From NCBI GenBank assembly GCA_041659325.1, contig JBAZYN010000002.1, forward strand, positions 513 through 64,512: a stretch of DNA of 64,000 nucleotides, given 5' to 3'. Positions 31,624 through 44,368 of the stretch are shown in pieces. Source of the stretch: Candidatus Shapirobacteria bacterium (lineage in GTDB: Bacteria > Patescibacteriota > Microgenomatia > UBA12405). The number at the start of each line of letters is the position of its first letter. Position 1 is the first letter of the stretch. The notes under the pieces were generated by a model that saw only the letters and a program-made list of their open reading frames with translations, had not been told where the DNA came from and made no database searches. The translations under genes and the position numbers were made by a program.

Positions 31624-32422
31624 CAATTTCTTTCACTTCGTCGATGGCGGGGGCAAGGTATTCGTAGATTTTTTCTGAATTTATCGCCGATAAGCTGTGG
31701 CGAAGGGAGGAGAGATATTTCAAACGAAGATCGGTGTTGATATTGATCTTGACAATCCCCGTTTGAATGGCCCGATCGATTTGCTCGGGGCTGATACCTG
31801 AACCACCGTGGAGGGTAAGAAAATTTTCGGGAATGGATGCAGCTATTTGGGAAAGAAGATCAAGGTCAATATTTTCGGGATAGGTAGTGTTGACACCATG
31901 GAGATTGCCAATGGATACAGCCAAAAGATCGGCGCCAGTGGCAGACATAAATTCGGAAGCTTGGAGGGGTTTGGTGAAACTTTCTGCGGAAAATCCGTTT
32001 TCGATCAGATTAATTTTGTTAAATTCGACTTCTATAAGAGAATCGGGGTTTGAATGGCGTATTTCGGAGATAAAATTTTTGGAAATTTCTAAATTTTCCT
32101 GATAACTGAAGGCAGAACCATCAAAATGGACCATGTCAAAACCAAGAGTGAGCAACCGTTTAAGGCGGGAAATATCTTTTCCATGATCCATGTTGAGAAA
32201 AATCGGCAGACCTTCAATTCTGGCTTTTTTAACCAACATCAATAATCTTTCTGCTCGGACGAAAATATCTTCGCCAGTTGATAGTTGAACAATGCAGGGT
32301 AAGTTTGTCTCGGAGACAGCACTTTCGACGGCCTGATAGATTTCAAAACAGTCTATGTTGAAGGCAGGCAGAGAAAGATGGTTTGATTTATATTGATCAA
32401 AATATTGGCGAAGGGTGTTCAT
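31583..32422 (-). CDS. fba: class II fructose-bisphosphate aldolase family protein
   Basis: PIFLNMDHGKD and LTLHGGSGISPEQ motifs. Confidence 0.8.
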   Translation of the reverse strand: MNTLRQYFDQYKSNHLSLPAFNIDCFEIYQAVESAVSETNLPCIVQLSTGEDIFVRAERLLMLVKKARIEGLPIFLNMDHGKDISRLKRLLTLGFDMVHFDGSAFSYQENLEISKNFISEIRHSNPDSLIEVEFNKINLIENGFSAESFTKPLQASEFMSATGADLLAVSIGNLHGVNTTYPENIDLDLLSQIAASIPENFLTLHGGSGISPEQIDRAIQTGIVKININTDLRLKYLSSLRHSLSAINSEKIYEYLAPAIDEVKEIVKQRIVQLSLSHS

Positions 32423-33345
32423 CTAGATGACATGATAACATTTACGGCTTCGCGTAAATAATCGACACCGATACCATAGTGTTTATAAAGTTCCCGAAAG
32501 TCTTTGGCTGATTGGCCAAAACGGTTGTCGACGGCAAGATGAATAAATTTCGGGGAGAGACCGGCAGATAGTACCAGGGAAGCGACAGCTTCCCCCAATC
32601 CGCCATTTTTTTGATGGTCTTCGAGAACGATCAGGCGGCCGGTTTTTTCAACACTTTTTAAAATGGTCTCGGAATCTAGCGGTTTTATAGAAGAGCAATT
32701 TATAATTTCAACACTGGTGGAGCCAATGTTGAAAGCCTGAATCAGGGTTGGGCCATAACCCAAAACCGTGACACTGTGCCCTCTTTTTAAAACATAAGAT
32801 TTTCCGATGGTAAAGCTGTTTTTGGGATTATAAATTGAGGGAGTGTGAGGGCGGATCAGGCGAAGATATGAAGGCAGGGGGCTTCGGGCAATTACGGAGA
32901 CTATTTTTTCGGTTTCAATGGCGTCAAGCGGAGCAAAAACCTGCATATTTGGTAAGGAGCGCATAAGGGCGACGTCTTCGAGCATCTGATGGGTGGCGCC
33001 AAGGTCGGTACTGAAAAGACCGGAGTGAGAACCAACGATAGTGACATTGGCATGGTTATAACAGATGGATTGCTTAATGGTATTCCAGTTTATGGATGGG
33101 GAAAAACAGGAAAATGAAGTAAGAAAAACTTTTTTGCCGGTTTTGGCTAAGCCGGCGGCAACGCCGGCGGCATTGGCTTCGGCGACACCACACTCAATGA
33201 AGCGGGAAGGGAATAATTTGGCGAACTTATTTAAAGAAAGCGATGATTTTAAGTCGGCATTGACGACATAAATACTTCTATCATGCCTGGCAAGTTTGGT
33301 AAGAGTTTCTCCAAAAGCCTGGCGGATGGATAGGTCTTTAACCAT
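32419..33345 (-). CDS. transketolase, C-terminal (pyrimidine-binding) subunit
   Basis: Internal ATG at 33345 gives MVKDLSIRQAFGETL, ECGVAEANAAGVAAGLA. The track's TTG start at 33462 adds an implausible poly-Thr extension. Overlaps the upstream subunit by 8 nt. Confidence 0.85.
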   Translation of the reverse strand: MVKDLSIRQAFGETLTKLARHDRSIYVVNADLKSSLSLNKFAKLFPSRFIECGVAEANAAGVAAGLAKTGKKVFLTSFSCFSPSINWNTIKQSICYNHANVTIVGSHSGLFSTDLGATHQMLEDVALMRSLPNMQVFAPLDAIETEKIVSVIARSPLPSYLRLIRPHTPSIYNPKNSFTIGKSYVLKRGHSVTVLGYGPTLIQAFNIGSTSVEIINCSSIKPLDSETILKSVEKTGRLIVLEDHQKNGGLGEAVASLVLSAGLSPKFIHLAVDNRFGQSAKDFRELYKHYGIGVDYLREAVNVIMSSR

Positions 33346-34132
33346 GGTTGTCGATTTCTTTTCTGGCCCTTTGATGTAGATTTTCGGGCAAATTTTTAAT
33401 GTCGTGGTAGTGGTAGTCGTGCTGCATGAAAGAAACGCCCTTGCCAATAATGGTTTTGGCAATTATACAATTGGGAAAATCGGAGTCTTGGGCGTCCTTT
33501 ATGGCCTTGGTAATTTTTTTAAAATCGTGACCATCGACAGTGGTAACAGTCCAGCCGAATTGAACATACTTGCCGGCAAGATTACCCAGGGGCATTATGT
33601 CGTCGGTAGCCCCATCGATTTGATAGTGGTTGTAGTCGACAATATTTATCAGGTTGCCGAGATGATATTTGCTGGCAAACATGGCGGCTTCCCAGGTTTG
33701 CCCTTCCTGGTGCTCCCCATCGGAGGTGAGACATATGGTGGTATTCTTTTTATCGCCAAGTGCCAGTCCACAGGAAAACGACAGTCCCTGGCCCAGGGAG
33801 CCGGCGGAATATTCAACTCCGGGAACATCGGTGGAAACATGCCCCTGGAGAATGGAGCCAAAGGAAGAATAGGAAGAAAGAAGCTCTCTGGAAAAAAGCC
33901 CTAATTTCGCCAGGACTACATACAAGGCCGGGCAAAGATGGCCGGCAGACAGGACAAAATGATCTTTTTTGTGGTTAAAAACATCGGAAAAATAGACAGC
34001 AATCATTAGGTCCAGAGAAGAAAGCGAACCTCCGATATGGCCTCCACCTGATTGGTAAATCATATCCAGCAGATCAAGACGAAGTTCACGGCTGATTGTC
34101 TTTAGGTTGTTAACCCGGGGGGCAAGAAGCAT
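33338..34132 (-). CDS. transketolase, N-terminal (TPP-binding) subunit
   Basis: GGHIGGSLSSLDLM, GSLGQGLSFSCGLAL, DGEHQEGQTWEA. Confidence 0.85.
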   Translation of the reverse strand: MLLAPRVNNLKTISRELRLDLLDMIYQSGGGHIGGSLSSLDLMIAVYFSDVFNHKKDHFVLSAGHLCPALYVVLAKLGLFSRELLSSYSSFGSILQGHVSTDVPGVEYSAGSLGQGLSFSCGLALGDKKNTTICLTSDGEHQEGQTWEAAMFASKYHLGNLINIVDYNHYQIDGATDDIMPLGNLAGKYVQFGWTVTTVDGHDFKKITKAIKDAQDSDFPNCIIAKTIIGKGVSFMQHDYHYHDIKNLPENLHQRARKEIDNHG

Positions 34133-34193: not shown

Positions 34194-34694
34194 GTGGACA
34201 TTTTTTATAACAAATACTATCAAAGCGTCCGGGGCTTTGTGGCAAAAAGGATTGATGATGAAGGGTTGGCTGAGGAGCTGACAAACGACATATTGATGGC
34301 AGCGATTAAGTCGCTACCTAATTACGACAATAAGTGCTCTGAATTCAGTTGGATTTGCAGTATTGCCAAGCATAAAATAATTGACTATTACCGAAAGAAA
34401 AAAATAAAGACGGTGCTGTTTTCGGTTTCGGAAGTGTTTGAAGATGTGGCCGATAAAGCCCTCAGCCCGGAGCGAGAAAGTATAGAGGCCGAGCTAAAGG
34501 GTGAAATTAAAAAAACACTAAGGGAGCTAAAAGCAGGATACGGCAGCCTTTTACGACTAAAGTATGTAGACGGAATGAAGATCAGACAAATCGCCGGTAT
34601 TTTGAAATTGAGTGTAAAAGCGGTTGAATCCCGGCTAATAAGGGCCAAAAAACAGTTCCGTCTGGCGTGGAACTATGATCAAAAAAAGAGTTGA
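34194..34694 (+). CDS. ECF-type RNA polymerase sigma factor (sigma-70 family, regions 2 and 4)
   Basis: Region 2 FSWICSIAKHKIIDYYRKKK; region 4 MKIRQIAGILKLSVKAVESRLIRAKKQFR. Confidence 0.8.
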   Translation: MDIFYNKYYQSVRGFVAKRIDDEGLAEELTNDILMAAIKSLPNYDNKCSEFSWICSIAKHKIIDYYRKKKIKTVLFSVSEVFEDVADKALSPERESIEAELKGEIKKTLRELKAGYGSLLRLKYVDGMKIRQIAGILKLSVKAVESRLIRAKKQFRLAWNYDQKKS

Positions 34695-35031
34695 AAAAAT
34701 TGCTAAGTTGTCAATTTTGGTCGGGGCCAAACAGGCGTGGAAATTGCTTTGTAACTTATATCTTTTGAGCTACCAGCCATTTTTGACCCTGAGAACCATT
34801 AAGGAAAGTGATGATAAGCTGCAATTAATATTGCTACTTTTGGCAGTTGTTTCCCCGGCGGTTTTTTATGTTACAACCCGAGTGGTTTGGGATAACTATA
34901 AATACGGGCGGGTATTAAATTCGGTGGGGCAGGTGTTTTTGGTGGTTTTCGTTGTGGAGGTTTTGATATTTTCGTATCTTTTGTATTGGTCGATTAAAGT
35001 AATCAGGAGTTGTCCGAAAAAAACAAATTAA
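34675..35031 (+). CDS. membrane protein, possible anti-sigma factor
   Basis: Overlaps the sigma-gene stop; three hydrophobic helices. Assigned by position only. Confidence 0.35.
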   Translation: MIKKRVEKIAKLSILVGAKQAWKLLCNLYLLSYQPFLTLRTIKESDDKLQLILLLLAVVSPAVFYVTTRVVWDNYKYGRVLNSVGQVFLVVFVVEVLIFSYLLYWSIKVIRSCPKKTN

Positions 35032-35109
35032 TGGAATTAGTTGACAAAATGGTTGATTTGAAATATTATTCGGGTGTCGTTTCGTGTTATTGATTTAAGG
35101 AGATTTTTT

Positions 35110-35652
35110 ATGGGAAGAGAGCATGGTCCAGTTAGAATTGTGGTATTGAGTCGAAAAGAAAGAGAGGTGGTAAGCGATCCGAGGTGGAGAGATAGATTTG
35201 GAAGGTTGAACCAACTCTTGGGTGAATTGGGGCCGGAGGCAAATACGGTTGTTGATGATTCTTTGGCAATGGTTGACCTACGGCTTGAGACTGAAGGACT
35301 TAATGCTTTAGAATTAAACGCCGAAAGGAGAGCGAGAGGACAGGAGTTATTAAAATTGAGAAGGGAAAGGGCGACTGGTATTGTCAGGGCCGCAACAACA
35401 TTGAATCCTAACGTGACTATGGCACGTGGCTTGGAGTTATTTGATGATGATAAAGATTCTGTTGGTGATTATGAGGTCGCCTCATTGGTTGAAAGAGCGT
35501 TTCTAGAGGCGGCTGATAGAGGTACACCAATGATAAATTCGAATGTAATCAAGGCCTGGGCTAATATTTTGAGGATGGGGTACGATATGCAATCCAGTAT
35601 TGATCCCTCTAGGATAACTACCGTGATGAGATCGGCGATAGTTAGACGTTGA
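35110..35652 (+). CDS. hypothetical protein (GC-rich, first gene of accessory cassette)
   Basis: ATG at 35110 preceded by an AAGGAG Shine-Dalgarno (the track starts at GTG 35074). No recognisable motif. Confidence 0.4.
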   Translation: MGREHGPVRIVVLSRKEREVVSDPRWRDRFGRLNQLLGELGPEANTVVDDSLAMVDLRLETEGLNALELNAERRARGQELLKLRRERATGIVRAATTLNPNVTMARGLELFDDDKDSVGDYEVASLVERAFLEAADRGTPMINSNVIKAWANILRMGYDMQSSIDPSRITTVMRSAIVRR

Positions 35653-35729
35653 GGATATGAAAATTAACCAAATTGACAGTTGAGGTTGCAATTTGGGATG
35701 AAAGACAGAAAAACGTATATAATGGGCGG

Positions 35730-36341
35730 ATGAGGAAAATAATCGTAGTATCGGGTTTGGGAGACAGCAAACGCGAGCTTGGCCTTGGGTCGGCCTGGTG
35801 GAAAAATGAGGGATTAAGGCCGTTTATATTTCTACCAAATTGGGGAAACGGTAAAGGAGTAAAGCCAAAGCTCGTCAGATTATTAAAAATGATTGATAAA
35901 GAAAGTGGAAAAGAGACAATTTTTTTGATGGGAATCAGCGCCGGAGCTAGCTTGGCGATGAATGCTTTTTTACAAAGGCTTGATCGGGTAGAAAAAATGG
36001 TGAGTCTGTGCGGCAGATTAAGGTTTGGGTATTCCCCGGATAAAATCAGGAGAAAAATGCAAAAAGAGACATTGGCCTATCGGGCGTTTAGGGAATCGGT
36101 AAAATTGCTGGAATCCAATGTCAAAAACCTGGAAAAAAAAGATAGAAAAAGAGTCCTGACGGTTAGCGCCAAATTCGGCGATGAGCTAATTCCGATCGAA
36201 ACGTCACGGTTGGAGGGGGCAAAAAACATTTTGATACCGACGGCGGAGCATATTTTGTCAATTTTTGGCGGAATGACGGTCCATTTTAAACCGATAAGAG
36301 AGTTTTTGCTGGGAAAACAGGGTGGGAGTAAAATATACTAG
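35730..36341 (+). CDS. small alpha/beta-hydrolase (paralog A; RBBP9/YdeN-like serine hydrolase fold)
   Basis: Nucleophile elbow GISAGAS and later D (GDELIP) and H (TAEHIL). Clear paralog of 42674..43351 and 62304..62870. The track starts at TTG 35673. Confidence 0.6.
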   Translation: MRKIIVVSGLGDSKRELGLGSAWWKNEGLRPFIFLPNWGNGKGVKPKLVRLLKMIDKESGKETIFLMGISAGASLAMNAFLQRLDRVEKMVSLCGRLRFGYSPDKIRRKMQKETLAYRAFRESVKLLESNVKNLEKKDRKRVLTVSAKFGDELIPIETSRLEGAKNILIPTAEHILSIFGGMTVHFKPIREFLLGKQGGSKIY

Positions 36342-36343
36342 TG

Positions 36344-37087
36344 ATGACAAACGTGGTAATGAGTGATGAGGCAGAAGGGGCGCTTCAAAATATCTTTGAA
36401 ATTACAAAACCGATTTCTATTTTTGTTTATGGCTCTCGAGCCAGAACAGATTTTAAACCAACCAGTGATTATGAGGTCGGGGCAATTTATTTAAAAGAAA
36501 ATAAACCAAGAAGGGCTGAAATTGCGGCGTTACATAATGTCGAGGGGTTGAATGTTTATCCTTTTGCGGCTGAGGGGCTGAAACAATATAACCTGGATAC
36601 GCCATTTCCCAGGGCAATATATCTTAGGGAACTTATTGGCAGTAGCAGGACAGTATTTGGGCAGGAGATTTTGGAGAAAATGGAGCTGCCGGTGATTAGA
36701 TTAACAGATTTATTGGAGAGTGCGGCTTTTGAAGTGGCTACAGCGTTTGCGGCAGTTAGGTCGTTTAGAACAAATGATTTAATAACTACTTCGATAAACT
36801 TTAAATCAGCGCTCTTTGGGGCCAGGATTTTGGAAATTTTAGAACTAAAGAAATTTCCTTTAACTTATGATGGAATCTTTGAAACGACAAAACAGTTAGA
36901 CCTAAGTCCTGAATATTTGCCCTTACTTGATCATGCCATGAGAGTAAGGCGGGGAGAAAAAATTCAGGAACAATTTTTATTTACGAACATTACTTTTTTA
37001 AACCAAGAAGTTCTTAAAAAGGTAAAACATGAATTATCGGCAAGTGGCGATAGAACGGTTTTACCGGGGAAGAAAATTGAGTGGTAG
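36344..37087 (+). CDS. Pol-beta superfamily nucleotidyltransferase with helical C-terminal domain (KNTase/ANT-like architecture)
   Basis: IFVYGSRARTDFKPTSDYEVGAIY (hG[GS]...DxE), followed by ~150 aa of helical domain. Confidence 0.55.
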   Translation: MTNVVMSDEAEGALQNIFEITKPISIFVYGSRARTDFKPTSDYEVGAIYLKENKPRRAEIAALHNVEGLNVYPFAAEGLKQYNLDTPFPRAIYLRELIGSSRTVFGQEILEKMELPVIRLTDLLESAAFEVATAFAAVRSFRTNDLITTSINFKSALFGARILEILELKKFPLTYDGIFETTKQLDLSPEYLPLLDHAMRVRRGEKIQEQFLFTNITFLNQEVLKKVKHELSASGDRTVLPGKKIEW

Positions 37088-37177
37088 GAGCTTGGGGCTT
37101 TTTCCCAAACAGAATTGGCTGATGAAACCCCGAAATAAAAAAAGTTATAATGAGGGGTGGGAATAGAAGAGGGATAA

Positions 37178-38056
37178 ATGGTTGCAAGTCAAAGACCGAT
37201 AAAATGTGAGGAGAGACCTGAGTTGGTATCAGCAGTTTCCCAAAAATTAGGACATGCATATAAGTTGTTGGGGATTCCCGAGCCTAAGCTGCTGCCGGTA
37301 TCAATAGATTTTGAAGAAATTCCATATCTTGCAAAAGTAGATGTTACGAAAATCGGGGTAAGGGTAGCCTGTGACGAGAGATTTAGAACAAAAGAACAAG
37401 AGGATACTGCTTTGGTGGAATTTAGGTTAGAGGGAAACAACTTCCCCGGGACAGAGATAGTGTTGGCCCATGAGCTAGCGCACATCGGTCTTTGGGCTCT
37501 GACCGGGCAAGAAAGGCAACCGCCAACGAGGTTATTTGATGAAGGATTTGCGAATATTATCGAGAATGCGGCTGAGGCTGAAGATATTGAAGACTTAGAG
37601 CTAAGGGCAAGAGAGGAAACACGGGAAATGATGGCTTCTCACCCGGATGCATATGCAAGATGCCTGGAAATAGACCGGCCGGTTACCCAGACAGAGGCAC
37701 CACAGTTAAACGGGGTGGATGCAGTAGTGGGGAGGGCATTTTTGTTGTGGGCACGGCAAAAGGGCGGAAACCAGGCAATGATTGACTTGCTATCTCATTC
37801 ACCATCGGCAACTAAAAGAAATGACGAGGAGTTTGAGCCGGTGGCCTTGAAAGATGAGTGGGCAAATAATGAGGAGTACAATGAGTTGGTTGAAAAGATG
37901 ATATCAGGGGAAATACAACCTGAAGATTTTCCCCAAGAGGCCTATGAGTGGGAAAGAAAACAGCTAAAATGGGCGATATTAAAAATAACCGGAGCGGGAA
38001 ATATGGATGAAGTTAAACGAAAATTTTCCGAATGGGTTGAAGAAGGAAGAAAATAG
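37178..38056 (+). CDS. hypothetical HExxH protein (putative zinc-dependent hydrolase/peptidase)
   Basis: EIVLAHELAHIGLW motif. GC-rich, acidic C-terminus. Confidence 0.4.
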   Translation: MVASQRPIKCEERPELVSAVSQKLGHAYKLLGIPEPKLLPVSIDFEEIPYLAKVDVTKIGVRVACDERFRTKEQEDTALVEFRLEGNNFPGTEIVLAHELAHIGLWALTGQERQPPTRLFDEGFANIIENAAEAEDIEDLELRAREETREMMASHPDAYARCLEIDRPVTQTEAPQLNGVDAVVGRAFLLWARQKGGNQAMIDLLSHSPSATKRNDEEFEPVALKDEWANNEEYNELVEKMISGEIQPEDFPQEAYEWERKQLKWAILKITGAGNMDEVKRKFSEWVEEGRK

Positions 38057-38137
38057 GTAGCAAGATGGATATGTTTGTGGGAAGCAAAGAAGTAGTCTAA
38101 TGATGATTTATTTGAGGTTGATAAGAAGTAAAGAGGA

Positions 38138-38971
38138 TTGCGGTATAATAGCCTGATGGATATTTTGTGCTGGAACATAATGAGCGGAGGGTTTAATGGC
38201 TACGACAGTATGGCCAGTAAACCCGAAAGGTTAGATTTGTTGGTAGAAGCAATAAAGGGAGTTAACGCCGATTTTGTCAGTTTGGTTGACACACACAGAT
38301 GGACTGAGGTGTTTACGCCTGATGATTTGAGAGGATTATTTGGATATGAAAATGTCTATTTTGTGGGGCTTAATGACCAGAGGCTTAAGGTAAAAGGGCA
38401 TGATAATGGTATTGCTGTTTTAACACGATTGCCGATTACAAGATTTGAGACGGTGAGATTGGCAACGAGAAATGCAATTAGATCTGTGATTATGAATGGA
38501 GGAAAAGAATTGGAGATATTTTCAGTATATTTGGATGACTTAAGTGAGGATACGAGACTAAGGCAGGTAATGGCACTTTTGGGGCTAATTGATTTTGCTA
38601 AACCGACGGTATTTGCCGGAGACTTAAATACCATAAGTGCAAGTGAGGTACCGGAAGCGAGGGAAAATATAGAGAAGTTATTTTCTAGATACCCGCAAGC
38701 CCGGGTGATGGAGCCGTCTTTGAGGGAAATGATGCGGGGAGAGGTGATCAAAAAAATCGAAGAAAGGGGTTTTGTTGATATGGGAAAAGGGGCGGGAAAT
38801 ACAATACCGAGTAAACTGTCGCCTATTCCAATAGATAGACCTTTATTAAGGTTAGATTACGGCTTTTGCACCAAAGGGGTGGTAGTGGAAGGTTTTGAGG
38901 TATTAAGGGAAGAGATATTTGACAAGGTGTCGGATCATTATCCTATTAGGATGAAGGTTTCCTTGGGATGA
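38138..38971 (+). CDS. endonuclease/exonuclease/phosphatase (EEP) family protein
   Basis: ILCWNIMSGG, FAGDLNTI, SDHYPIRMKV are the EEP catalytic motifs. Confidence 0.75.
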   Translation: MRYNSLMDILCWNIMSGGFNGYDSMASKPERLDLLVEAIKGVNADFVSLVDTHRWTEVFTPDDLRGLFGYENVYFVGLNDQRLKVKGHDNGIAVLTRLPITRFETVRLATRNAIRSVIMNGGKELEIFSVYLDDLSEDTRLRQVMALLGLIDFAKPTVFAGDLNTISASEVPEARENIEKLFSRYPQARVMEPSLREMMRGEVIKKIEERGFVDMGKGAGNTIPSKLSPIPIDRPLLRLDYGFCTKGVVVEGFEVLREEIFDKVSDHYPIRMKVSLG

Positions 38972-39076
38972 ACGTCGGGTAAAATGATTGGGGAGTAATA
39001 AAAGAAAAACGCAACCTAACGTTTGCCTGTTTTGTATTGAATAAGAAGATAAATAGGATTGGGGTAAAATGTAATA

Positions 39077-39598
39077 ATGAAGTTAAATATTAACCCACCA
39101 GACTTTATTTATTGTCCATTTTGCGGTAATAAATTAGAAATAAAGTTTGACGGTGAAAAAGAAAGAAAATATTGTCTCACCGACAATTGGACTTATTATC
39201 CGTTTGTGGCCAACGCAGTCGGTGCCGTGATTCGGAACGGCGATAAAGTACTACTGGTTAAACGGAACAAAGAACCGTATAAAAATACATGGATGTTCCC
39301 TGCTGGGTTTGTAGATTATGGGGAGCACCCGGAAGATTCATTGGCCAGAGAGGTAAAAGAAGAGACGGGATTGGATGTAATAAGTTCTAGTTTAATGGGA
39401 ATATTTCAGGTTGACGATGATCCCCGGAGTCCAGGCCATTTTGATTTTTTTTACGAGGTAAAAGTTGGGTTGAAGAATGAGATTAAAACCGATAAAGACG
39501 AGAATAACGATATTAATTGGTTTGACTTAATAAATTTACCGGAAATAGGATGGCATACTCATCAGAAGGTTGTAGATATTGTTAGAAAAGAAGTCTAA
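39077..39598 (+). CDS. NUDIX hydrolase with N-terminal zinc ribbon (NudC-like)
   Basis: CPFCGNKL...KYC ribbon plus Nudix box GFVDYGEHPEDSLAREVKEETGL. Confidence 0.8.
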   Translation: MKLNINPPDFIYCPFCGNKLEIKFDGEKERKYCLTDNWTYYPFVANAVGAVIRNGDKVLLVKRNKEPYKNTWMFPAGFVDYGEHPEDSLAREVKEETGLDVISSSLMGIFQVDDDPRSPGHFDFFYEVKVGLKNEIKTDKDENNDINWFDLINLPEIGWHTHQKVVDIVRKEV

Positions 39599-39705
39599 AG
39601 TGAGCGTCAGACAAAATGATGTGGAGTAATAAAAGAAAAATATAACTTAACCATTGCCTGGTTTGAGATTGGCAAGAAAAAGCGGAATTGGAGTAAAATC
39701 AGATC

Positions 39706-40383
39706 ATGAAAAGTGACCACTTAATAAGTTCTTCTGAGGCAGGATTTGGAAAAAGGCTTAGAGATATTGAGCTGTGGGGGGATAAAGAAGGACAAATCGT
39801 GACGAACTATCAGGAAATATCCGAATATATCGCAAGAAGGATTTTTTCTAAAACCGGGGATAAAAGTATATTGGAAATTTGTTGCGGGATAGGATCTCTT
39901 ACTGTGTTTTTGGCTAAAGTTTTTAGCCGGGTAATTGCGGTTGATATTAATCCAATTCGAATTGTAGCGGCAAATAAAAATCTACAATTAAACAATTTAA
40001 TAAACAGAGTCGATTTAATAACCGGAGATATTGAAAACGAAAAGGTTATTAACAAAATTTGTAATAAATACAAGATTGGGGCTGTTTGTACGGATGTCAC
40101 ATGGTCTGAAACCGGTATCTACGGACAAGATCATACGGATGACTTGGATAAAACTACACCAGCTACGGATAAATTATTTAAGTTATTGACTGATAGAGAT
40201 TGGAAAAATATCTGTATGAGACTACCAAAAACGATTGACTATAAACAATTAATGGGTTTGGGGTCGGTAGAAATTGAAGAAATTTCCATAAATGGAGAAT
40301 TAAAGTTTATTTACGCTTATTTTGGCATGCTAGTTAAGGATATCGGAATAACAAAGAAGAACTTTCGGATAGACAGAAAATAA
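39706..40383 (+). CDS. class I SAM-dependent methyltransferase resembling RNA cap guanine-N2 methyltransferase (Tgs1/Methyltransf_15-like)
   Basis: ILEICCGIGSLTVFLA...VIAVDINPIRIVAANKN...VDLITGDI parallels the Tgs1 pattern DAFCGVGGN...VIAIDIDP...FICGD. Confidence 0.55.
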   Translation: MKSDHLISSSEAGFGKRLRDIELWGDKEGQIVTNYQEISEYIARRIFSKTGDKSILEICCGIGSLTVFLAKVFSRVIAVDINPIRIVAANKNLQLNNLINRVDLITGDIENEKVINKICNKYKIGAVCTDVTWSETGIYGQDHTDDLDKTTPATDKLFKLLTDRDWKNICMRLPKTIDYKQLMGLGSVEIEEISINGELKFIYAYFGMLVKDIGITKKNFRIDRK

Positions 40384-40461
40384 AGATTACAGCTGAACAA
40401 TGACCTTGTTTTGGACTGATAAAGAGATTAGGAGGATAGGAACAGGGTGTAAAATCTGACA

Positions 40462-41208
40462 GTGAAAGACAATTTATTAGTCAAATGCAAAGAACTAATT
40501 CGGGCATATAAAAACGGTTTGTTAGGTATCTGCACTATGCCGGAAGACAGCAACCCTGGGTTTGACGAAGATGATGGAGAACTAAGACTTGCCTATTTTA
40601 CTTTGCCAATGAGTCTTAACTACCAGCGAGACAGTTACAAATTATGGGAAGCCGCACTTAAGGCGTACAAGGATAAGGCAGTTCAAAACATATTTGATGT
40701 AAAATCGGTATCGGAGATGTCCTCGGAAGAATTAAGAAGTAAGTTACTGAAATATAAAGTTGCTCTTCAACCAAATAAACACATCAATACTTGGAAAACC
40801 ATTTCGGAGACAATTTTGAATAACTGGGGTAGTTTCAAAAACTTGTTTGAATCAACGAATTTTGATTTGGAGATTATCAAGGAATTGATTCAAAAAAAAT
40901 ATAAAAGAGGCTTTCCTTATTTATCCGGACCTAAGATATTTAATTACTGGAGTTTTATTATAGGCACTTACGGAAGGATACCCCTTAAGAATAGACAATT
41001 AATTGAGATTGCCCCAGATACTCATGTGATTAAATGTTCAGTGGCTTTGGGATTAATTAGCATCGCGGAAGCAGAAAGACTAAGTAGGGACGAAATATCA
41101 AAACGATGGAGAGATGCTTTGGAGGGCTCAGGAATTAGTCCAATTGAGATGCATCCCCCTTTGTGGTTTTGGAGCCGGAATGGGTTTGTTTATAAACTTC
41201 GAAACTGA
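40462..41208 (+). CDS. HhH-GPD superfamily glycosylase-like protein
   Basis: FPYLSGPKIFNYWSFIIGTYGRIPL...IAPDTHVIK fits the helix-hairpin-helix Gly/Pro loop plus catalytic Asp pattern. Confidence 0.5.
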   Translation: MKDNLLVKCKELIRAYKNGLLGICTMPEDSNPGFDEDDGELRLAYFTLPMSLNYQRDSYKLWEAALKAYKDKAVQNIFDVKSVSEMSSEELRSKLLKYKVALQPNKHINTWKTISETILNNWGSFKNLFESTNFDLEIIKELIQKKYKRGFPYLSGPKIFNYWSFIIGTYGRIPLKNRQLIEIAPDTHVIKCSVALGLISIAEAERLSRDEISKRWRDALEGSGISPIEMHPPLWFWSRNGFVYKLRN

Positions 41209-41283
41209 ATATTGCGGGTACCTCGAAGATTGTAGAACCGGGATAGGTGGACCAATTTTTGAACTTTCGGAGTAAAATACGAT

Positions 41284-41760
41284 ATGGGTGGAGATTTTAA
41301 GTGGGTGTCTACAACAAATATGTTTGTAATGGATGGGAGTAAAGTGCTAGTGATTAAAAGAGGAGAGGAAGAGAAAGATTTTCCCGGTTGGTATATGCTG
41401 CCCGGAGGGAAGCAAGAAGCGAATGAAACACCGATACAGACTGCAATTAGAGAAACTTTTGAAGAGACGGGAATAAAGGTAACAAATCCAAAATTAAGAG
41501 TTTTGGCGACACACAATCACGAATACCGGGAAAGAATGTATCTGGTATACATATTCTCATCTACCGAATTCTTGGGACAAATTGTCCAGTCAGATGAAGG
41601 AACCGCGATGTGGATGCCGATTGATGAACTTATAAATAACCCAAAGTTATACCCGGACTTAAAGAGACATATTAGAATGATTATAGGGGACGAAGAGCAT
41701 GAAGTATTGTTTACGTATCATAAGTTTGACGATAACTTGAATATCATCGAGGAAGCCTGA
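41284..41760 (+). CDS. NUDIX hydrolase
   Basis: Nudix box GGKQEANETPIQTAIRETFEETGI. Confidence 0.8.
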   Translation: MGGDFKWVSTTNMFVMDGSKVLVIKRGEEEKDFPGWYMLPGGKQEANETPIQTAIRETFEETGIKVTNPKLRVLATHNHEYRERMYLVYIFSSTEFLGQIVQSDEGTAMWMPIDELINNPKLYPDLKRHIRMIIGDEEHEVLFTYHKFDDNLNIIEEA

Positions 41761-41763
41761 GCT

Positions 41764-42555
41764 ATGGATCGGGAGAGTATAGGAGAAGAAATTGAGAAGG
41801 AAAGAAGAGGCCCTAAAATCATTGGAGTAATCGGGCCTCACAGAATAGGAAAGGATACTGTAATTGATGGACTGGTTTCAAGCTTATCGGGCAAAGATGT
41901 GAGAAAGTTTTCAATCGGTGAATATATCAGGGATAGGCTTTATGAAACGGATGATCCTGCCGGAGCAGAGGTACTTTTTGCCAGAGAATTGGAAGAAGCG
42001 AAGGTTGAGAGCGAAGATACTCGTTTGAATAAACTGTCGGGGAGACAACTGGTGGGGGAAATTAAACATAATTATGACAATAGATTACCCATTCCGGAGG
42101 AAGTGGCCGACTGGATATTTAAAGGATTTCTCGAGAGTTGTTCTGAGGATACTATAGTGCTGATGTCTGGAGGGCCTTATTCTGTAATTGATCTGAAGTT
42201 CATGGAGAAACATTCTCCTCCAATGGGGTTGATTTTGCTAGCCCCGACCTCTAGGGATTGGATGGAAGAAATTCCCAGAAGGGCGGCGTTTGGGGAGAGG
42301 GAGAGTATGCGTGACCCAGAAGAAGAGTGGAACAAATGGAGAGGAAGGGTGGCGGAAGTGATGCGACACGCTTATTCGATGGGATACCCGGTACTACATG
42401 TGAATATGAGAAACCCCGGGTTGTCTATAGAAAATGTTAATAGTCAAATACAAGGTGCCCTTGGTGAGTTTGTGGAGGGGGTAGCAGAGGGGCGAACACT
42501 CTCGAAATTGAAAAAAATTGATATTGGTGGGGATGAGAGGTTAGGACGAAATTAA
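41764..42555 (+). CDS. P-loop NTPase, predicted nucleotide/nucleoside kinase-like
   Basis: Walker A-like IGVIGPHRIGKDTV near the N-terminus. 263 aa; no other clear family signature. Confidence 0.45.
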   Translation: MDRESIGEEIEKERRGPKIIGVIGPHRIGKDTVIDGLVSSLSGKDVRKFSIGEYIRDRLYETDDPAGAEVLFARELEEAKVESEDTRLNKLSGRQLVGEIKHNYDNRLPIPEEVADWIFKGFLESCSEDTIVLMSGGPYSVIDLKFMEKHSPPMGLILLAPTSRDWMEEIPRRAAFGERESMRDPEEEWNKWRGRVAEVMRHAYSMGYPVLHVNMRNPGLSIENVNSQIQGALGEFVEGVAEGRTLSKLKKIDIGGDERLGRN

Positions 42556-42673
42556 GGTGGTTCTAAAATCGAAGAGATGGACTATGGAATTGCCAGATAG
42601 TAGTGCAATGGCTTAATAATTAATTGCTTTGGGGTTGATAATAAAGTCAGGAGAATTGGAGTAAGATCTTAGT

Positions 42674-43351
42674 ATGAATTATGTGGTTGGTGGTGTGGCG
42701 GTGGCGATATTATTCTGTTTAGTGTTTACCCTTAGTATTGTGATAAATAATAACTCTTTGGGAAAAACTAATCATACGGCGATAATCGTATTGGGTTTGG
42801 GAGAAAACCGGGAATCTAAAACCGTGGAATATCTATGGAAAAGGCAAGGAGTAAAAGTGATATTTTTTCAACCTAACTGGAAAAGTGAAGAAAAACTACA
42901 GGATAAACTAAAAAGATTGTCAGATTTAATTGATAAAGAAGCAATGGGGAATAAGGTTTCTCTAGTAGGTGTGAGTGCCGGAGGAAGTCTGGTAATCAAT
43001 GCTTTCGTCGAAAATAAAAATAAAGTTGATAAAGTAATCACTTTATGTGCCCGCTTAAGAAAGGGTGAAATGACAGGCTTCCGAGGTTTTGAAGAAAGAA
43101 CAAAAGGTTATCCGGCTTTTCGGGATTCAGTTATCTTGGCAGAAAAAGTAGAAAAGTTATTTGATGAAAATGATAGAAAAAAAATTATGACCGTTCATGC
43201 ATTGTTAGGTGACGAATTGGTACCTCAAAATACGACAACGATTGAAGGAGCAAAGAATATAACCGTGCCGACGGGAGAACATGTAATTAGTAGTGCGGCC
43301 AGTTTGACGATATTTTCTAAACCTTTAGTTAAATTTATTTTAGAAAAATAG
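42674..43351 (+). CDS. small alpha/beta-hydrolase (paralog B, N-terminal TM anchor)
   Basis: GVSAGGS elbow; LCARLRKGE; GDELVP; TGEHVI. Collinear with paralog A throughout. Confidence 0.6.
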   Translation: MNYVVGGVAVAILFCLVFTLSIVINNNSLGKTNHTAIIVLGLGENRESKTVEYLWKRQGVKVIFFQPNWKSEEKLQDKLKRLSDLIDKEAMGNKVSLVGVSAGGSLVINAFVENKNKVDKVITLCARLRKGEMTGFRGFEERTKGYPAFRDSVILAEKVEKLFDENDRKKIMTVHALLGDELVPQNTTTIEGAKNITVPTGEHVISSAASLTIFSKPLVKFILEK

Positions 43352-43477
43352 GCTTGAGACCTGACGGTTGAATCCGTATGTTTGTAACAAATTACCAATA
43401 GTTCTGCAATATTTCTAATTGATTTTGTATTTTTTATAGGTTACACTATCGTTGTTTATTAGAATTCATTAATAAAA

Positions 43478-44368
43478 ATGGGTATAGAACGGGGAGTACA
43501 AACAAAAGAATTTCCCACTGCCACAAGGTATCAATTTTCCGAATGGGATGAAAAAAAACAGGAATATGTCTGGACTGACGGAAAAGAAACTTTGGCTGGC
43601 GAAAAAGGACAACTTTCAGTGGGACACTACGAAGGGGAAGGGTTAAGAGAAGCGTTAAGGGTAAATACCGGCATGGCCAGATTTGTTTTGGTTGATAACG
43701 GAACAGCATCTCTGGAAGGCCAGATTGTTGATTCAAAAAGTTTGGTTTACATCCCTGCCGGAGCATCTGTGAATCTTGGGGAAGTCCAGGGCGGGGCTTG
43801 GATTGTGGAAGTAACGGCAACTCTTTCTGAAGAAAATACTAAGGCAACTATTCTTCCGGTTTCGGTTAATCCAACTAGTCATGCTGCCTGGTTTGGTTCT
43901 TGGACTTCGGTTGGTGGCCAAAACCTTGGTATCCCTCCTTCGATTCATTTCGGAATTGAAGAGGGATCGGTTACGGAAATTATCACCGCCGGATTGGGCA
44001 CAGAATATACTCCATGGAGCCTTCGGAATTTATCAGAAGAAAAACAAACAAAAGCTAGAGCAGCAGTGGCCGATAATAAAAATGCAGAACTTCTCCATGG
44101 ACATAATGATACGACTGAAATTTACGTTTGTGTTGAAAATCGAACAGTAGTTGATATTCAACCTAACAACGCTCCTCCTACAAATGAAATAGATCACCAA
44201 CAATCGGTACCTTTAGGGCCAGGAATGATGGTAGTCGTTGGACCCAGTACAGGATACTCTCACCGCGAACCTTCTCCAATAATCAGTGGCAAAATGTTTG
44301 TTATTAAATGGAATGGAGGGGAAATCGTCGATAGGAACGATAAACACCCCCATCCTTTGGCGGGATAG
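43478..44368 (+). CDS. hypothetical protein (possibly cupin-like beta-rich)
   Basis: 296-aa ORF with no recognisable catalytic motifs. Lies between the cassette and tRNA-Cys. Confidence 0.35.
   Translation: MGIERGVQTKEFPTATRYQFSEWDEKKQEYVWTDGKETLAGEKGQLSVGHYEGEGLREALRVNTGMARFVLVDNGTASLEGQIVDSKSLVYIPAGASVNLGEVQGGAWIVEVTATLSEENTKATILPVSVNPTSHAAWFGSWTSVGGQNLGIPPSIHFGIEEGSVTEIITAGLGTEYTPWSLRNLSEEKQTKARAAVADNKNAELLHGHNDTTEIYVCVENRTVVDIQPNNAPPTNEIDHQQSVPLGPGMMVVVGPSTGYSHREPSPIISGKMFVIKWNGGEIVDRNDKHPHPLAG

Follow-up and report, generated by a model that had tools for sequence, protein, structure and literature searches.

A TGS1-family methyltransferase homolog beside a zinc-ribbon Nudix hydrolase in a Candidatus Shapirobacteria genome

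Introduction

The enzyme TGS1, which methylates m7G caps, has been described from eukaryotes and giant viruses. A homolog of TGS1 is encoded by a CPR contig (Candidatus Shapirobacteria), from a host with no known m7GpppN caps or snRNAs. The methyltransferase gene (MT) follows a gene for a zinc-ribbon Nudix hydrolase (NUDIX1), and a sequence-only reading of the locus had taken the two for an unusual cap-modifying and cap-removing pair that might serve the metabolism of NAD or other non-canonical RNA caps. Here we describe the family of each protein, the residues they retain, and the conservation of their association. The window refers to the whole 64,000-nucleotide stretch of DNA that was analyzed.

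Results

The locus and its genes

Both genes were confirmed at the positions given in Table 1. The many conserved homologs found for NUDIX1 and MT indicate that these are real genes and not chance ORFs. MT had been described as directly following NUDIX1; it is indeed the next gene on the same strand, but a 107-bp spacer with a leader of its own separates the two, which do not overlap and are not translationally coupled in the Shapirobacteria genome.

Table 1. Features of the NUDIX1-MT locus (positions in the window).
Feature	Position	Strand	Basis or remark
NUDIX1 upstream (leader/promoter) region, paralogous to the MT leader	38972..39076	+	77/101 aligned bases identical
Zinc-ribbon Nudix hydrolase (NUDIX1), 173 aa	39077..39598	+	PF00293, 78.5 bits
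Ribbon knuckles C13-x2-C16 ... C33-x2-D36 (Cys3Asp)	39113..39184	+	translation, family alignment A5
Nudix box G77-x5-E83-x7-R91-E92-x2-E95-E96-x-G98-L99	39305..39373	+	followed by signature Q111-x2-DDPRSPGHF
MT upstream (leader/promoter) region, copy of the NUDIX1 leader	39599..39705	+	ends GTAAAAT-N6-ATG
Stand-alone TGS1/Methyltransf_15-family guanine-N2 methyltransferase homolog (MT), 225 aa	39706..40383	+	PF09445, 58.7 bits
SAM-binding motif I, I55-L-E57-I-C-C60-G-I-G-S64	39868..39897	+	HMMER alignment to human TGS1
Motif IV, D130-V-T-W133	40093..40104	+	aligns with human TGS1 S763-P-P-W766 and Giardia Tgs2 DPPW
Unannotated 248-aa gene, between MT and the second Nudix	40462..41208	+	GTAAAAT-N6-GTG start element
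Second Nudix, MutT-like, 158 aa, two genes downstream of MT	41284..41760	+	PF00293, 72 bits

The 248-aa gene gave no significant family match, only faint ones to AGOG (E = 0.04) and ERCC1-HhH, and the gene downstream of the 64% ortholog at locus L006 is unrelated to it. For the second Nudix, the best NCBIfam models were of the MutT type, all scoring below their cut-offs; this protein may be tied to the function of MT. On either side of the block containing these genes lies one of a pair of alpha/beta-hydrolase paralogs (42% identity), and the block ends at a tRNA-Cys gene. Genes for a Pol-beta nucleotidyltransferase and an EEP nuclease/phosphatase are also found in the block with the Nudix genes, of which the window contains three.

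A leader sequence shared by NUDIX1 and MT

The leaders of NUDIX1 and MT are 76% identical over approximately 100 nt. Their alignment score of 44 compares with 6.5 +/- 2.4 for 1000 shuffles, and all other leader pairs of the block scored 21 or less, so that the duplication is limited to these two genes. A shorter start element, GTAAAAT-N6-RTG, is common to NUDIX1, MT, the 248-aa gene, and the second Nudix. Since the same leader has been copied before each gene, NUDIX1 and MT are probably co-regulated.

We also considered whether the leader is a riboswitch or other structured RNA, and rejected this possibility because the MT leader had no Rfam match at E <= 1, neither copy folded significantly (z = 0.0 and -1.1), and the leader is not kept upstream of the orthologs at loci L006 and L007. 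The element represents a promoter/leader that was duplicated locally. Consensus scans for a terminator or promoter between NUDIX1 and MT performed no better than on shuffled sequence.

MT is a member of the TGS1 family

The best Pfam match of MT was to PF09445 (Methyltransf_15) with an E-value of 7e-16 and a score of 58.7 bits against a cut-off of 22, covering model positions 3-164 of 165; the next-best Pfam family scored 33.8 bits. Human TGS1 (3gdh/3egi) was the best sequence match in the PDB by HMMER (1e-16, residues 25-211). A Foldseek search of the PDB with the AF2 model of MT (pLDDT 95.5) returned human TGS1 for all of the top six matches (E-values of 5e-13 to 6e-12, TM 0.70-0.77), the next fold match following at 2e-9 and TrmM and RumA at 1e-8. 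The motifs quoted in the sequence-only reading were found at residues 55-70 (ILEICCGIGSLTVFLA), 76-83 (VIAVDINP), and 104-109 (LITGDI). MT was not placed in any family of rRNA, tRNA, or protein methyltransferases, and the scores of the rRNA and tRNA models all lay far below the cut-offs and well below that of Methyltransf_15. Of the best other methyltransferase models, those of NCBIfam gave at most 33 bits against cut-offs of at least 160, and the MTS model gave 22.6 bits, just under its cut-off of 23. MT contains no THUMP, PUA, or other RNA-binding domain. Profile, sequence, predicted structure, and fold search thus all strongly support MT as a member, over its full length, of the TGS1/Methyltransf_15 guanine-N2 family, and with this the earlier view of MT as Tgs1-like.

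An exhaustive phmmer search of 1.84 billion representatives gave only 579 matches at E <= 1e-3. Approximately 50 small prokaryotic proteins or clusters ranked first, followed by long eukaryotic trimethylguanosine synthases, whose identity was confirmed. The family is a rare prokaryotic branch of TGS1, found mostly in CPR along with a few other uncultured lineages; no members were found in viral contigs. It appears to be uncharacterized, as literature searches found no study of the prokaryotic TGS1-like family.

Conservation of catalytic and pocket residues

MT resembles human TGS1 (3GDH/3EGI) in fold over approximately 190 residues, with an rmsd of 2.5-2.9 Å and 28-29% identity, but is a stand-alone protein of 225 aa as compared to the 800-1100 aa of eukaryotic TGS1. 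Residue conservation was counted over 44 prokaryotic family members. By alignment, the SAM-ligand positions D696, D719, N731, and D747 of human TGS1 correspond to E57, D80, N92, and D108 of MT (within motif I, C699 also corresponds to C60), and their equivalents are kept in 42 to 44 of the 44 members: the residue is acidic at D696 and at D719 in all 44, and N731 is kept in 43. The motif IV Asp is present in every member and the Trp, equivalent to human W766, in 40. The four SAM-binding residues are essential in human TGS1 and Tgs2. In motif IV of TGS enzymes, the Ser or Asp accepts a proton in catalysis and the Trp stacks the guanine (PMC2709555, PMC1865056), and D140 and W143 of this motif are strictly essential in Giardia Tgs2 (PMC1865056). 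The AF2 model and these alignments show MT to keep the predicted TGS1 fold together with the catalytic apparatus, namely the SAM ligands and the Asp and Trp of motif IV.

The remainder of motif IV varies. Both prolines of the human SPPW are replaced in the DVTW of MT (V131 and T132), the first of these (P764) being kept in 31 of the 44 members. The Tgs2 of Giardia lamblia and the mimivirus Tgs are small, stand-alone, mono-methylating cap guanine-N2 methyltransferases and, like MT, have Asp in place of Ser at the start of motif IV. In Tgs2 the motif reads DPPWGG; the GG is missing both from the DV(T/E)W of the MT subfamily and from the D-P-x-W of the wider prokaryotic family.

Differences from human TGS1 are found in the pocket. 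F804, of the human first-methyl pocket, is R172 in MT, and 38 of the 44 members have R, K, or H there, which predicts at most mono-methylation if MT acts on N2 at all. The neighboring P806 is retained as P174, and a basic residue (K175) occupies the position of R807. The S671 position is hydrophobic, N704, Y771, and N808 are not conserved, and K646, which belongs to a four-helix N-terminal extension in the human enzyme, has no alignable counterpart, MT having a shorter segment (GDxxG..TNYQ) instead. In the region of T673 the alignment could be shifted by one residue. A segment RYRF, similar to RYRLF655, occurs in many members; MT has KRLR in its place. TGS1 owes its specificity for 7-methylguanine to cation-pi stacking on the Trp, a residue that MT retains. 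In the eukaryotic enzymes S671, Y771, K646, and the N-terminal extension flank the m7G pocket and bind the triphosphate. Since these elements are not conserved, recognition of m7G or of a polyphosphate cannot be deduced from these alignments.

NUDIX1 belongs to a zinc-ribbon Nudix family that is common in CPR

NUDIX1 had been read as having the architecture of NudC, with a Cys4 ribbon and a Nudix box. The ribbon and the complete Nudix box are present, but the ribbon is of the Cys3Asp type: C13, C16, and C33 are followed by D36 (C-L-T-D-N-W) where the family consensus is CxxC...CxxC. In family alignment A5, C16 and C33 are invariant, C13 is conserved in at least 90%, and the fourth ligand is mostly Cys; an Asp at this position occurs in 3 of 25 aligned relatives (P0066, P0079, P0114), or in 4 of 26 when NUDIX1 is included. 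Asp is able to ligate zinc. The alignment has 24 invariant columns that include the whole Nudix box, among them G77, E83, R91, E92, E95, and E96, as well as Q111 and D115 beyond it.

We found 287 homologs of NUDIX1 at E <= 1e-5, mostly in CPR, with identities of 45-62% among the matches listed. Many are annotated with PF14803 (Zn_ribbon_Nudix) plus PF00293, and NUDIX1 has this layout of an N-terminal ribbon fused to a complete Nudix box, in a family of approximately 170-190 aa. NUDIX1 is thus a member of a common CPR zinc-ribbon Nudix family, one whose gene neighbors are variable.

The relationship to NudC is limited to the ribbon-Nudix module. With the AF2 model of NUDIX1 (pLDDT 91.7), the 13 best Foldseek matches were chains of E. 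coli NudC (E-values of 5e-12 to 2e-10, TMq ~0.62), followed by 3cng, and the profile of the family aligns over positions 8-153 with residues 95-233 of NudC (5IW4, 5ISY), which shares the order of zinc ribbon then Nudix. The overall rmsd to NudC is approximately 8 Å, the orientation of the ribbon relative to the Nudix domain being different. The NudC model NF001299 was the best NCBIfam model at 57.4 bits, well under its cut-off of 158, and matched at model positions 104-241 of 263. NudC carries an N-terminal domain of approximately 90 residues, which is absent from NUDIX1, a protein that begins 12 residues before its first Cys. The SQPWPFPxS motif is the defining signature of NADH pyrophosphatases. 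NUDIX1 lacks this motif and has F-Q111-V-D-D-D-P-R-S-P-G-H-F there, of which only the Q aligns. Generic MutT-type Nudix proteins score as well as NudC against the NUDIX1 family.

The Nitrosomonas europaea protein 3CNG (PF14803 plus NUDIX), which stems from structural genomics, has the size and two-module layout of NUDIX1 with no extra N-terminal domain. Residues 12-110 of NUDIX1 align with residues 5-105 of 3CNG, and the NUDIX1 family matches it at 6e-15. Identity to 3CNG is approximately 22%, and the CPR family is set apart by the signature Q-x2-DDPRSPGHF, EN..I.WF, LP.IGW.SH.

Gene neighborhoods of the two families

The pairing of NUDIX1 with MT is not conserved from either side. A TGS-like methyltransferase was found in none of five genomic contexts of NUDIX1 orthologs, and a Nudix neighbor in none of the five other lineages of the MT subclade, so that the proposal of a conserved cap-modifying and cap-removing pair is not supported for NUDIX1. 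At locus L007, which shares synteny with the window (identities of 60% for the sigma factor, 43% for EEP, and 59% for the Nudix), the Nudix gene is followed by an unrelated TehB-like methyltransferase and a UDG. Within the MT subclade (43-58% identity) the neighbor differs in every lineage, being a tRNA-binding protein (L010), FtsZ/RmuC (L001), Ham1 and another methyltransferase (L005), the CCA-adding enzyme (L067), or a peptidase S51 (L012). CPR genomes are known to pack unrelated housekeeping genes into co-directional strings.

A different picture is seen in a sister clade whose methyltransferases are 38-43% identical to MT. Here the gene lies within an operon of overlapping genes on one strand, [NDT-like]-PRTase-GuaA-Tmk-like-(PfkB)-MT-Nudix, found at loci L015, L016/L047, L017, L042, L044-L046, L048, L049, and L069/70; at L068 a radical-SAM gene stands where the Nudix gene would be. 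The arrangement is preserved between methyltransferases that are just 40-47% identical. The operon Nudix gene is followed by a RibA-like GTP cyclohydrolase II gene at L042/48/49 and by a convergent gene for an XTP/dITP diphosphatase (Ham1) at L045/46. Outside of the operon, a Ham1 gene overlaps the start of the methyltransferase gene at L005, and a divergent Nudix gene is found two genes away in Desulfarculus (L018).

The operon and the window share the methyltransferase family, with motif IV of the form TDVxW, and a same-strand Nudix gene beside it. They differ in that the operon Nudix is downstream, MutT-like, ribbonless, and often translationally coupled whereas the ribbon Nudix of the window is upstream, and in that no GuaA, Tmk, or PRTase gene is nearby in the window. 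The second Nudix was the top scorer among the three Nudix genes of the window against most of the operon Nudix genes. With scores of only 35-48 bits, orthology was rejected, and none of the Nudix genes of the window is an ortholog of the operon Nudix. Because the operon is essentially one inherited arrangement, the data amount to 2-3 independent methyltransferase-Nudix adjacencies among approximately 15 lineages, a count that is suggestive, not statistically compelling.

A second methyltransferase gene follows the TGS-like gene at L005 and L069/70 and is fused to it in a Nanoarchaeota protein (L019). A conserved partner for a two-step N7 and N2 methylation was rejected since these partner methyltransferases are mutually unrelated (E of 0.011 to 2.2).

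Discussion

The explanation that we favor, tentatively and at somewhat less than an even chance, is that MT is a guanine-nucleotide N2-methyltransferase working alongside pyrophosphatases in nucleotide-pool or 5'-end metabolism, and not part of a NudC/NAD-cap system. The recurrence of the MT family beside other Nudix and Ham1 pyrophosphatases, in operons for guanine-nucleotide salvage, makes a methyltransferase/pyrophosphatase partnership on a guanine nucleotide plausible. In the proposed mechanism, the guanine nucleotide would stack on W133, its N2 would be activated through D130 and the backbone of V131, and a single methyl group would be transferred, with R172 at the F804 position of the second-methylation pocket. 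The gene neighborhoods of the family suggest an exposed guanine nucleotide as the likely substrate. It could be free, as a mono- or dinucleotide that may carry a 7-methyl group, or it could stand at a 5' end, an internal G of a folded rRNA or tRNA being less likely; the Nudix, or Ham1 in other genomes, would hydrolyze the same class of compound. TGS enzymes use free m7GDP and m7GTP in vitro (PMC1865056, PMC2709555).

An ordinary m2G methyltransferase acting on internal guanines of tRNA or rRNA, a small RsmD/RsmC-like enzyme with NUDIX1 unrelated to its function, is the strongest competing explanation, although we consider it rather unlikely. TGS1 is evolutionarily related to the RsmC/RsmD family of m2G enzymes (PMC2709555). 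These, too, are class I amino-methyltransferases of small size, and their motif IV is of the (D/N)PP(F/W) type. The replacement of F804 by Arg together with the non-conserved m7G-flanking residues would fit another type of guanine substrate. Two relatives lie by tRNA-associated genes: P0125, the closest full-length relative (47%), overlaps the end of the CCA-adding enzyme gene by 8 bp, and a 51% relative is 39 bp from the divergent tRNA_bind-domain gene. The lack of conservation of the NUDIX1-MT pair also favors internal-RNA methylation. Against it, the rRNA and tRNA methyltransferase models fell well below Methyltransf_15, no RsmC or RsmD model is among the family matches listed for MT, and TGS1 is clearly closer by sequence and by fold (1e-12 as compared to 1e-8 for TrmM and RumA). 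The family is also very rare, unlike a housekeeping modification enzyme, MT is without an RNA-binding domain, and the sister clade is placed in a nucleotide salvage operon. Should MT be a plain tRNA/rRNA m2G methyltransferase, the finding would be modest.

The two genes could also have no functional link, being unrelated accessory genes that happen to adjoin within a co-directional block whose content varies while its anchors are conserved. The replacement of MT by an unrelated methyltransferase and UDG at L007 despite retained synteny, the bracketing of the block by the hydrolase paralogs with the tRNA-Cys at its end, and the three Nudix genes in 64 kb, which make a chance adjacency not rare, are all consistent with this. 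We nevertheless regard it as clearly unlikely, given that the duplicated leader is confined to NUDIX1 and MT, that adjacency of the methyltransferase to a pyrophosphatase is seen again in other arrangements, and that the slot after the Nudix at L007 is again occupied by a methyltransferase.

A more specific form of guanine-nucleotide methylation would have wider consequences, and we consider it improbable: the small prokaryotic TGS1-like enzymes may N2-methylate m7G nucleotides or m7Gp4N-type 5' caps, which are known from E. coli RNA, with the Nudix and Ham1 proteins as the matching hydrolases. If true, CPR bacteria would have a system of hypermethylated caps or modified guanine nucleotides, possibly representing the prokaryotic stock of eukaryotic cap hypermethylation. 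Bacterial m7G-containing Np4N caps exist, their methyltransferases being unknown, and methylation of the cap blocks the Nudix enzyme RppH (PMC7044304). 

MT is a confidently modeled TGS1 relative, predicted to be catalytically intact, in bacteria with no known m7GpppN caps. The MT family offers a candidate for the missing methyltransferases that would modify bacterial NpnN caps, and has a bearing on the origin of the eukaryotic cap hypermethylase. Its recurrent salvage and sanitation context of GuaA, nucleotide/nucleoside kinase, MutT-like Nudix, Ham1, and GTP cyclohydrolase II genes leads to the hypothesis of a new nucleotide-level or 5'-end methylation.

The m7G-containing Np4N caps also speak for the original proposal, in which a NudC-type NAD-cap decapping enzyme and a methyltransferase that modifies caps would act as a pair on RNA with NAD or other non-canonical caps. 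For the ribbon-Nudix module, the top fold match is E. coli NudC, which also provides the best NCBIfam model. The fold matches of NUDIX1 further include NUDT12, a relative of NudC whose structure was determined with m7GTP. We find the proposal quite doubtful. NUDIX1 scores 57 bits where the NudC model requires 158, it has neither the N-terminal domain nor, apart from the Q, the SQPWPFPxS motif, generic MutT-type Nudix proteins score equally, and the rmsd to NudC is large. NAD offers no obvious site to a guanine-N2 methyltransferase, a TGS-like gene is never beside the NUDIX1 orthologs in the five contexts, and nothing in the data points to NAD.

We consider least probable a role of MT as an orphan N6-adenine DNA methyltransferase or as a component of a defense island. 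PADLOC matched residues 25-114 of MT to mad2 (1.5e-16), which serves the MADS system as its N6A DNA methyltransferase (bioRxiv 10.1101/2023.03.30.534895), and there are weak PHROG matches to 'DNA methyltransferase' as well as Pol-beta nucleotidyltransferase, EEP, and Nudix genes in the same block. However, the match to mad2 is confined to the SAM-binding half (positions 265-353 of 492) and ends ahead of motif IV, no other MADS genes were detected among 10 flanking proteins, MT is a compact 225-aa TGS1-type domain without a target-recognition domain, MicrobeMod treats Methyltransf_15 as a non-DNA methyltransferase decoy model, and no family member was found in viral contigs. An origin from phage or a defense island was accordingly rejected, the PADLOC and PHROG matches being at the domain level only.

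A minor observation concerns the 263-aa neighbor in the window, which has faint matches to a phage dNMP kinase (7e-6) and to thymidylate kinase (6e-5).

Family and Predicted Fold of the Methyltransferase

The best Pfam match of the 225-residue methyltransferase is PF09445 (Methyltransf_15, RNA cap guanine-N2 methyltransferase), which scores 58.7 bits over model positions 3–164 of 165 against a cut-off of 22 bits; the next Pfam family scores 33.8 bits. The rRNA, tRNA, and protein methyltransferase models of NCBIfam all remained far below their own cut-offs. When solved structures were searched by sequence, the catalytic domain of human TGS1 was on top (3egi/3gdh, E = 1e-16, methyltransferase residues 25–211), with all other structures at 4e-4 or worse. 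Foldseek was used to compare the PDB with an AlphaFold2 model (pLDDT 95.5) for which 44 family members served as input, and the best six matches were all human TGS1 chains (E ~1e-12, TM 0.70–0.77, rmsd 2.5–2.9 Å), followed by gentamicin methyltransferases, TrmM, and RumA at 2e-9 or worse. Profile, sequence, and predicted fold thus all lead to TGS1, as the sequence-only reading had proposed, and show that the protein is a genuine member of the TGS1 family.

When 1.84 billion cluster representatives were searched exhaustively with phmmer, no more than 579 proteins matched at E ≤ 1e-3. The top ~50 are short proteins of 190–260 aa that stand alone; members with a named source come from Dojkabacteria, Saccharibacteria, Woesebacteria, Brennerbacteria, unclassified Patescibacteria, Desulfarculaceae, a Spirochaetes MAG, and Chloroflexi as well as from Nanoarchaeota, and some already carry the JGI label 'trimethylguanosine synthase'. 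Later matches are proteins of 300–1200 aa with the matching region at the C-terminus; the long matches were confirmed as eukaryotic trimethylguanosine synthases of fish, lizard, chytrid and Neocallimastix fungi, and an amoebozoan. We found no study of small prokaryotic TGS1-like proteins in the literature searched. A fusion of a Methyltransf_31/25-type domain to a TGS1-like domain also occurs; the second methyltransferases that adjoin the TGS1-like gene at two other loci (L005 and L069) are not related to its N-terminal part.

Residues Shared with TGS1 Enzymes

Residues whose function has been tested in human TGS1 and Giardia Tgs2 (PMC2709555, PMC1865056) were mapped onto 44 prokaryotic members; numbering is that of human TGS1, with the residue of our methyltransferase in brackets. 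Among the SAM ligands, D696 (E57) and D719 (D80) are acidic in 44/44, N731 (N92) is kept in 43/44, and D747 (D108) is D or N in 42/44. The first residue of motif IV is Asp in all 44, as it is in Giardia Tgs2 and mimivirus Tgs, and in Tgs2 it is strictly essential (PMC1865056). The guanine-stacking W766 (W133) is kept in 40/44 and P806 in 31/44; R807 is Lys in the methyltransferase (K175) and in 20/44 members. In contrast, both motif IV prolines are lost in the window subfamily, which reads D-V-T-W (P764 is kept in 31/44 overall), the eukaryotic m7G-flanking segment GWFSVTPE is replaced by GQIVTNYQE in our methyltransferase, and neither N704, Y771, and N808 nor the four-helix, K646-bearing N-terminal extension is kept. 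At F804, which forms the first-methyl pocket of TGS1 and so permits dimethylation, 38/44 members have a basic residue (R172). The protein belongs to an uncharacterised prokaryotic TGS1 branch whose substrate pocket is altered: the guanine-N2 methylation machinery is intact, and the regions that recognise the m7G face and the triphosphate appear diverged. Mono-methylation is predicted.

The Zinc-Ribbon Nudix Hydrolase

The 173-residue Nudix protein matches PF00293 at 78.5 bits and has a complete Nudix box. Its ribbon carries C13, C16, C33, and D36, against a family consensus of CxxC...CxxC; the supposed Cys4 ribbon is therefore a Cys3Asp variant, a change present in 4/26 aligned sequences. Among NCBIfam models NudC fits best, but scores 57 bits against a cut-off of 158 and covers model positions 104–241 only. 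The family profile matches E. coli NudC at 2e-15 across ribbon and Nudix domain, about level with the generic MutT-type structure 4dyw (9e-16) and the ribbon-Nudix 3cng (6e-15). Of the SQPWPFPxS signature of NudC only the Gln aligns, the family carrying Q-x2-DDPRSPGHF instead. For the AF2 model (pLDDT 91.7) the best 13 fold matches are NudC, at E ~5e-12 but with an overall rmsd of ~8 Å; 3cng, mycobacterial NudC, and NUDT12 follow. The family is large in CPR bacteria (287 matches at E ≤ 1e-5), PF14803 (Zn_ribbon_Nudix) being present in many of its members, and JGI names the protein generically as COG 'ADP-ribose pyrophosphatase YjhB'. The NudC likeness thus holds roughly for ribbon-plus-Nudix layout and fold and fails for model score and signature; the protein is a bona fide Nudix that resembles NudC in layout only.

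Organization of the Locus

The window is part of a contig of Candidatus Shapirobacteria (CPR/Patescibacteria). Both open reading frames were confirmed, with a spacer of 107 bp, and NCBI and JGI entries from a contig of 335 kb match each protein with 100% identity. They lie in a co-directional gene run (see table) flanked by core metabolism: one flank has the split transketolase, FBA aldolase, and PfkB, the other flank mevalonate-pathway genes and PlsY. A tRNA-Cys gene lies on the opposite strand just past the end of the run. Two paralogous alpha/beta-hydrolase-like genes bracket the Pol-beta nucleotidyltransferase, a 292-aa gene, an EEP gene, the Nudix and methyltransferase genes, a 248-aa gene, the second Nudix, and a 263-aa gene. 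For the 248-aa protein encoded 3' of the methyltransferase the only matches, both faint, are AGOG (8-oxoguanine DNA glycosylase, E = 0.04) and the ERCC1 helix-hairpin-helix; together with the adjoining MutT-like Nudix, the AGOG likeness would suggest a conceivable guanine-damage theme. The 263-aa protein weakly matches phage dNMP kinase (PHROG 139, 6.7e-6) and thymidylate kinase (PHROG 761, 6.1e-5).

Coordinates of features in the window and at loci of relatives (L-handles)
Feature	Coordinates	Strand	Remarks
Transketolase, two separate overlapping ORFs	32419-34132	-	N-terminal TPP-binding part; pyrimidine-binding and C-terminal part
Co-directional gene run	34194-44368		From ECF-type sigma factor to 296-aa gene
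Region syntenic with L007	34194-39598; L007:400-4540
Alpha/beta-hydrolase-like paralogues	35673-36341; 42674-43351		42% identity, E = 2e-50
Pol-beta-type nucleotidyltransferase gene	36341-37087		248 aa, motif N-terminal; weak MntA/AbiEi-like antitoxin and PADLOC PDC-S09 matches
Upstream copies	38972-39076; 39599-39705		5' of Nudix; 5' of methyltransferase
Nudix	39077-39598	+	173 aa
Methyltransferase	39706-40383	+	225 aa
SAM-binding half of methyltransferase	39778-40047		Residues 25-114
248-aa gene directly 3' of methyltransferase	40462-41208	+	No family match
Second Nudix	41284-41760	+
263-aa gene 3' of second Nudix	41764-42555		P-loop GPHRIGKDT
Third Nudix	61450-61944		164 aa; PF00293, 44 bits
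GTAAAAT-N6-RTG	36328-36343; 39064-39079; 39693-39708; 40449-40464	+
GTAAAAT, N5 variant	41272-41286		At second Nudix
Sister-clade operons	L016:658-6124; L042:172-6325; L049:212-6393; L068:795-6876; L069:238-5036
Methyltransf_31/25-type (N-terminal) and TGS1-like (C-terminal) fusion	L019:3537-4937		Nanoarchaeota; also P0175, 467 aa

The Nudix and the methyltransferase are each preceded by ~100 nt of sequence, and the two stretches are mutual copies, 76% identical (77/101 aligned bases; score 44 versus 6.5 ± 2.4 for shuffles); all other pairs of upstream regions in the block scored 21 or less. The copies are unstructured, have no Rfam match, and are not conserved 5' of orthologues. The motif GTAAAAT-N6-RTG occurs four times in the window versus 0.55 expected (four were reached in 0/100 shuffles), always in the 36–41 kb block and each time ending exactly on a start codon: those of the Pol-beta nucleotidyltransferase, the Nudix, the methyltransferase, and the 248-aa gene. 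The element may be a -10-like sequence placed for leaderless or near-leaderless transcripts, in which case each gene would have its own promoter, the Nudix and the methyltransferase sharing the most similar one. A generic promoter scan was uninformative.

A Guanine-Nucleotide Operon in the Sister Clade

Methyltransferases of a sister clade (38–43% identical to ours, with the same TDVxW motif) lie in a tight operon of same-strand, often overlapping genes, in the order [nucleoside-deoxyribosyltransferase-like]-phosphoribosyltransferase-GuaA (GMP synthase)-thymidylate-kinase-like-(PfkB nucleoside/sugar kinase)-methyltransferase-Nudix. The operon is present in L015, L016/L047, L017, L042, L044–L046, L048, L049, and L069/70; in L068 a radical-SAM gene replaces the Nudix. 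One variant has a second methyltransferase plus Nudix 3' of the TGS1-like gene. The operon Nudix is MutT-like, without a ribbon, and is followed in L042/48/49 by a RibA-like GTP cyclohydrolase II (155 bits against a subfamily cut-off of 148) and in L045/46 by a convergent XTP/dITP diphosphatase (Ham1). Because the operon is kept between methyltransferases only 40–47% identical and Nudix proteins ~44% identical, the linkage is old. There is a strong case for placing one methyltransferase clade within guanine-nucleotide metabolism. The prokaryotic TGS1-like branch has an informative link to guanine-nucleotide salvage. The literature searched held no description of this operon. The 263-aa protein of the window may be an analogue of its Tmk-like kinase. 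In Desulfarculaceae a cupin gene precedes the methyltransferase, and in L018 a divergent Nudix lies two genes away.

Proposed Function and Competing Explanations

TGS enzymes accept a 7-methylguanine nucleoside di- or triphosphate as sufficient substrate (PMC1865056, PMC2709555). Methylated NpnN caps, m7Gp4Gm among them, occur on E. coli RNA; the methyltransferases that make them are unknown, and the methylation blocks the Nudix enzyme RppH (PMC7044304). We tentatively favor a role in nucleotide-pool or 5'-end metabolism, in which the methyltransferase would N2-methylate an exposed guanine nucleotide, free or 5'-terminal and possibly N7-methylated beforehand, and Nudix and Ham1 enzymes would handle the same compounds.

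The main alternative is a plain internal m2G tRNA or rRNA methyltransferase, which we consider somewhat unlikely. In the methyltransferase's own subclade (43–58% identity) the neighbor differs in each lineage: FtsZ/RmuC in Saccharibacteria (L001), a Ham1/ITPase gene overlapping the methyltransferase start plus a second methyltransferase (L005), peptidase S51 (L012), a divergent tRNA-binding-domain gene (L010), and a CCA-adding enzyme gene that overlaps by 8 bp (L067). The two tRNA-related neighbors speak for internal m2G formation. A 64% orthologue lies on a 1.2-kb contig that stops short of the upstream gene.

Pure coincidence within a variable block would explain the Nudix-methyltransferase adjacency with low probability. 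Locus L007 is clearly syntenic with the window, sharing the transketolase(-)/sigma(+) anchor and a sigma factor, EEP, and Nudix that are 60%, 43%, and 59% identical; a radical-SAM gene lies between its EEP and Nudix, and its Nudix is followed by a TehB-like methyltransferase without similarity to ours and then by UDG. The region is a variable slot between conserved anchors. The transketolase gene that adjoins the L007 sigma factor is the same N-terminal one. After clustering of the methyltransferases at 70% identity, ~17 lineages had usable context, and a Nudix was the immediate neighbor in four (the window, the L047 cluster, L015, and L017). Three of these share one ancestral operon and the 64-kb window has three Nudix genes, a high density that weakens arguments from adjacency alone, so the statistical case for a general methyltransferase-Nudix rule is suggestive, not strong.

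The pairing of NudC-type NAD-cap removal with a cap-modifying methyltransferase, raised by the sequence-only reading, is improbable and was not supported. No TGS-like methyltransferase was found beside ribbon-Nudix orthologues in five contexts (L007/L008, L009, L063/L064, L065, and L066), and the subclade neighbors all differ. Least probable is a DNA methyltransferase or defense gene; the SAM-binding half of the protein matches PADLOC mad2 (1.5e-16), the N6-adenine DNA methyltransferase of the MADS defense system (bioRxiv 10.1101/2023.03.30.534895), but the match is to a half-domain only, and size, fold, and missing partner genes speak against it. Proteins of ~400 aa from Actinocorallia and Streptosporangiaceae (L024–L037) may belong to the mad2 group.
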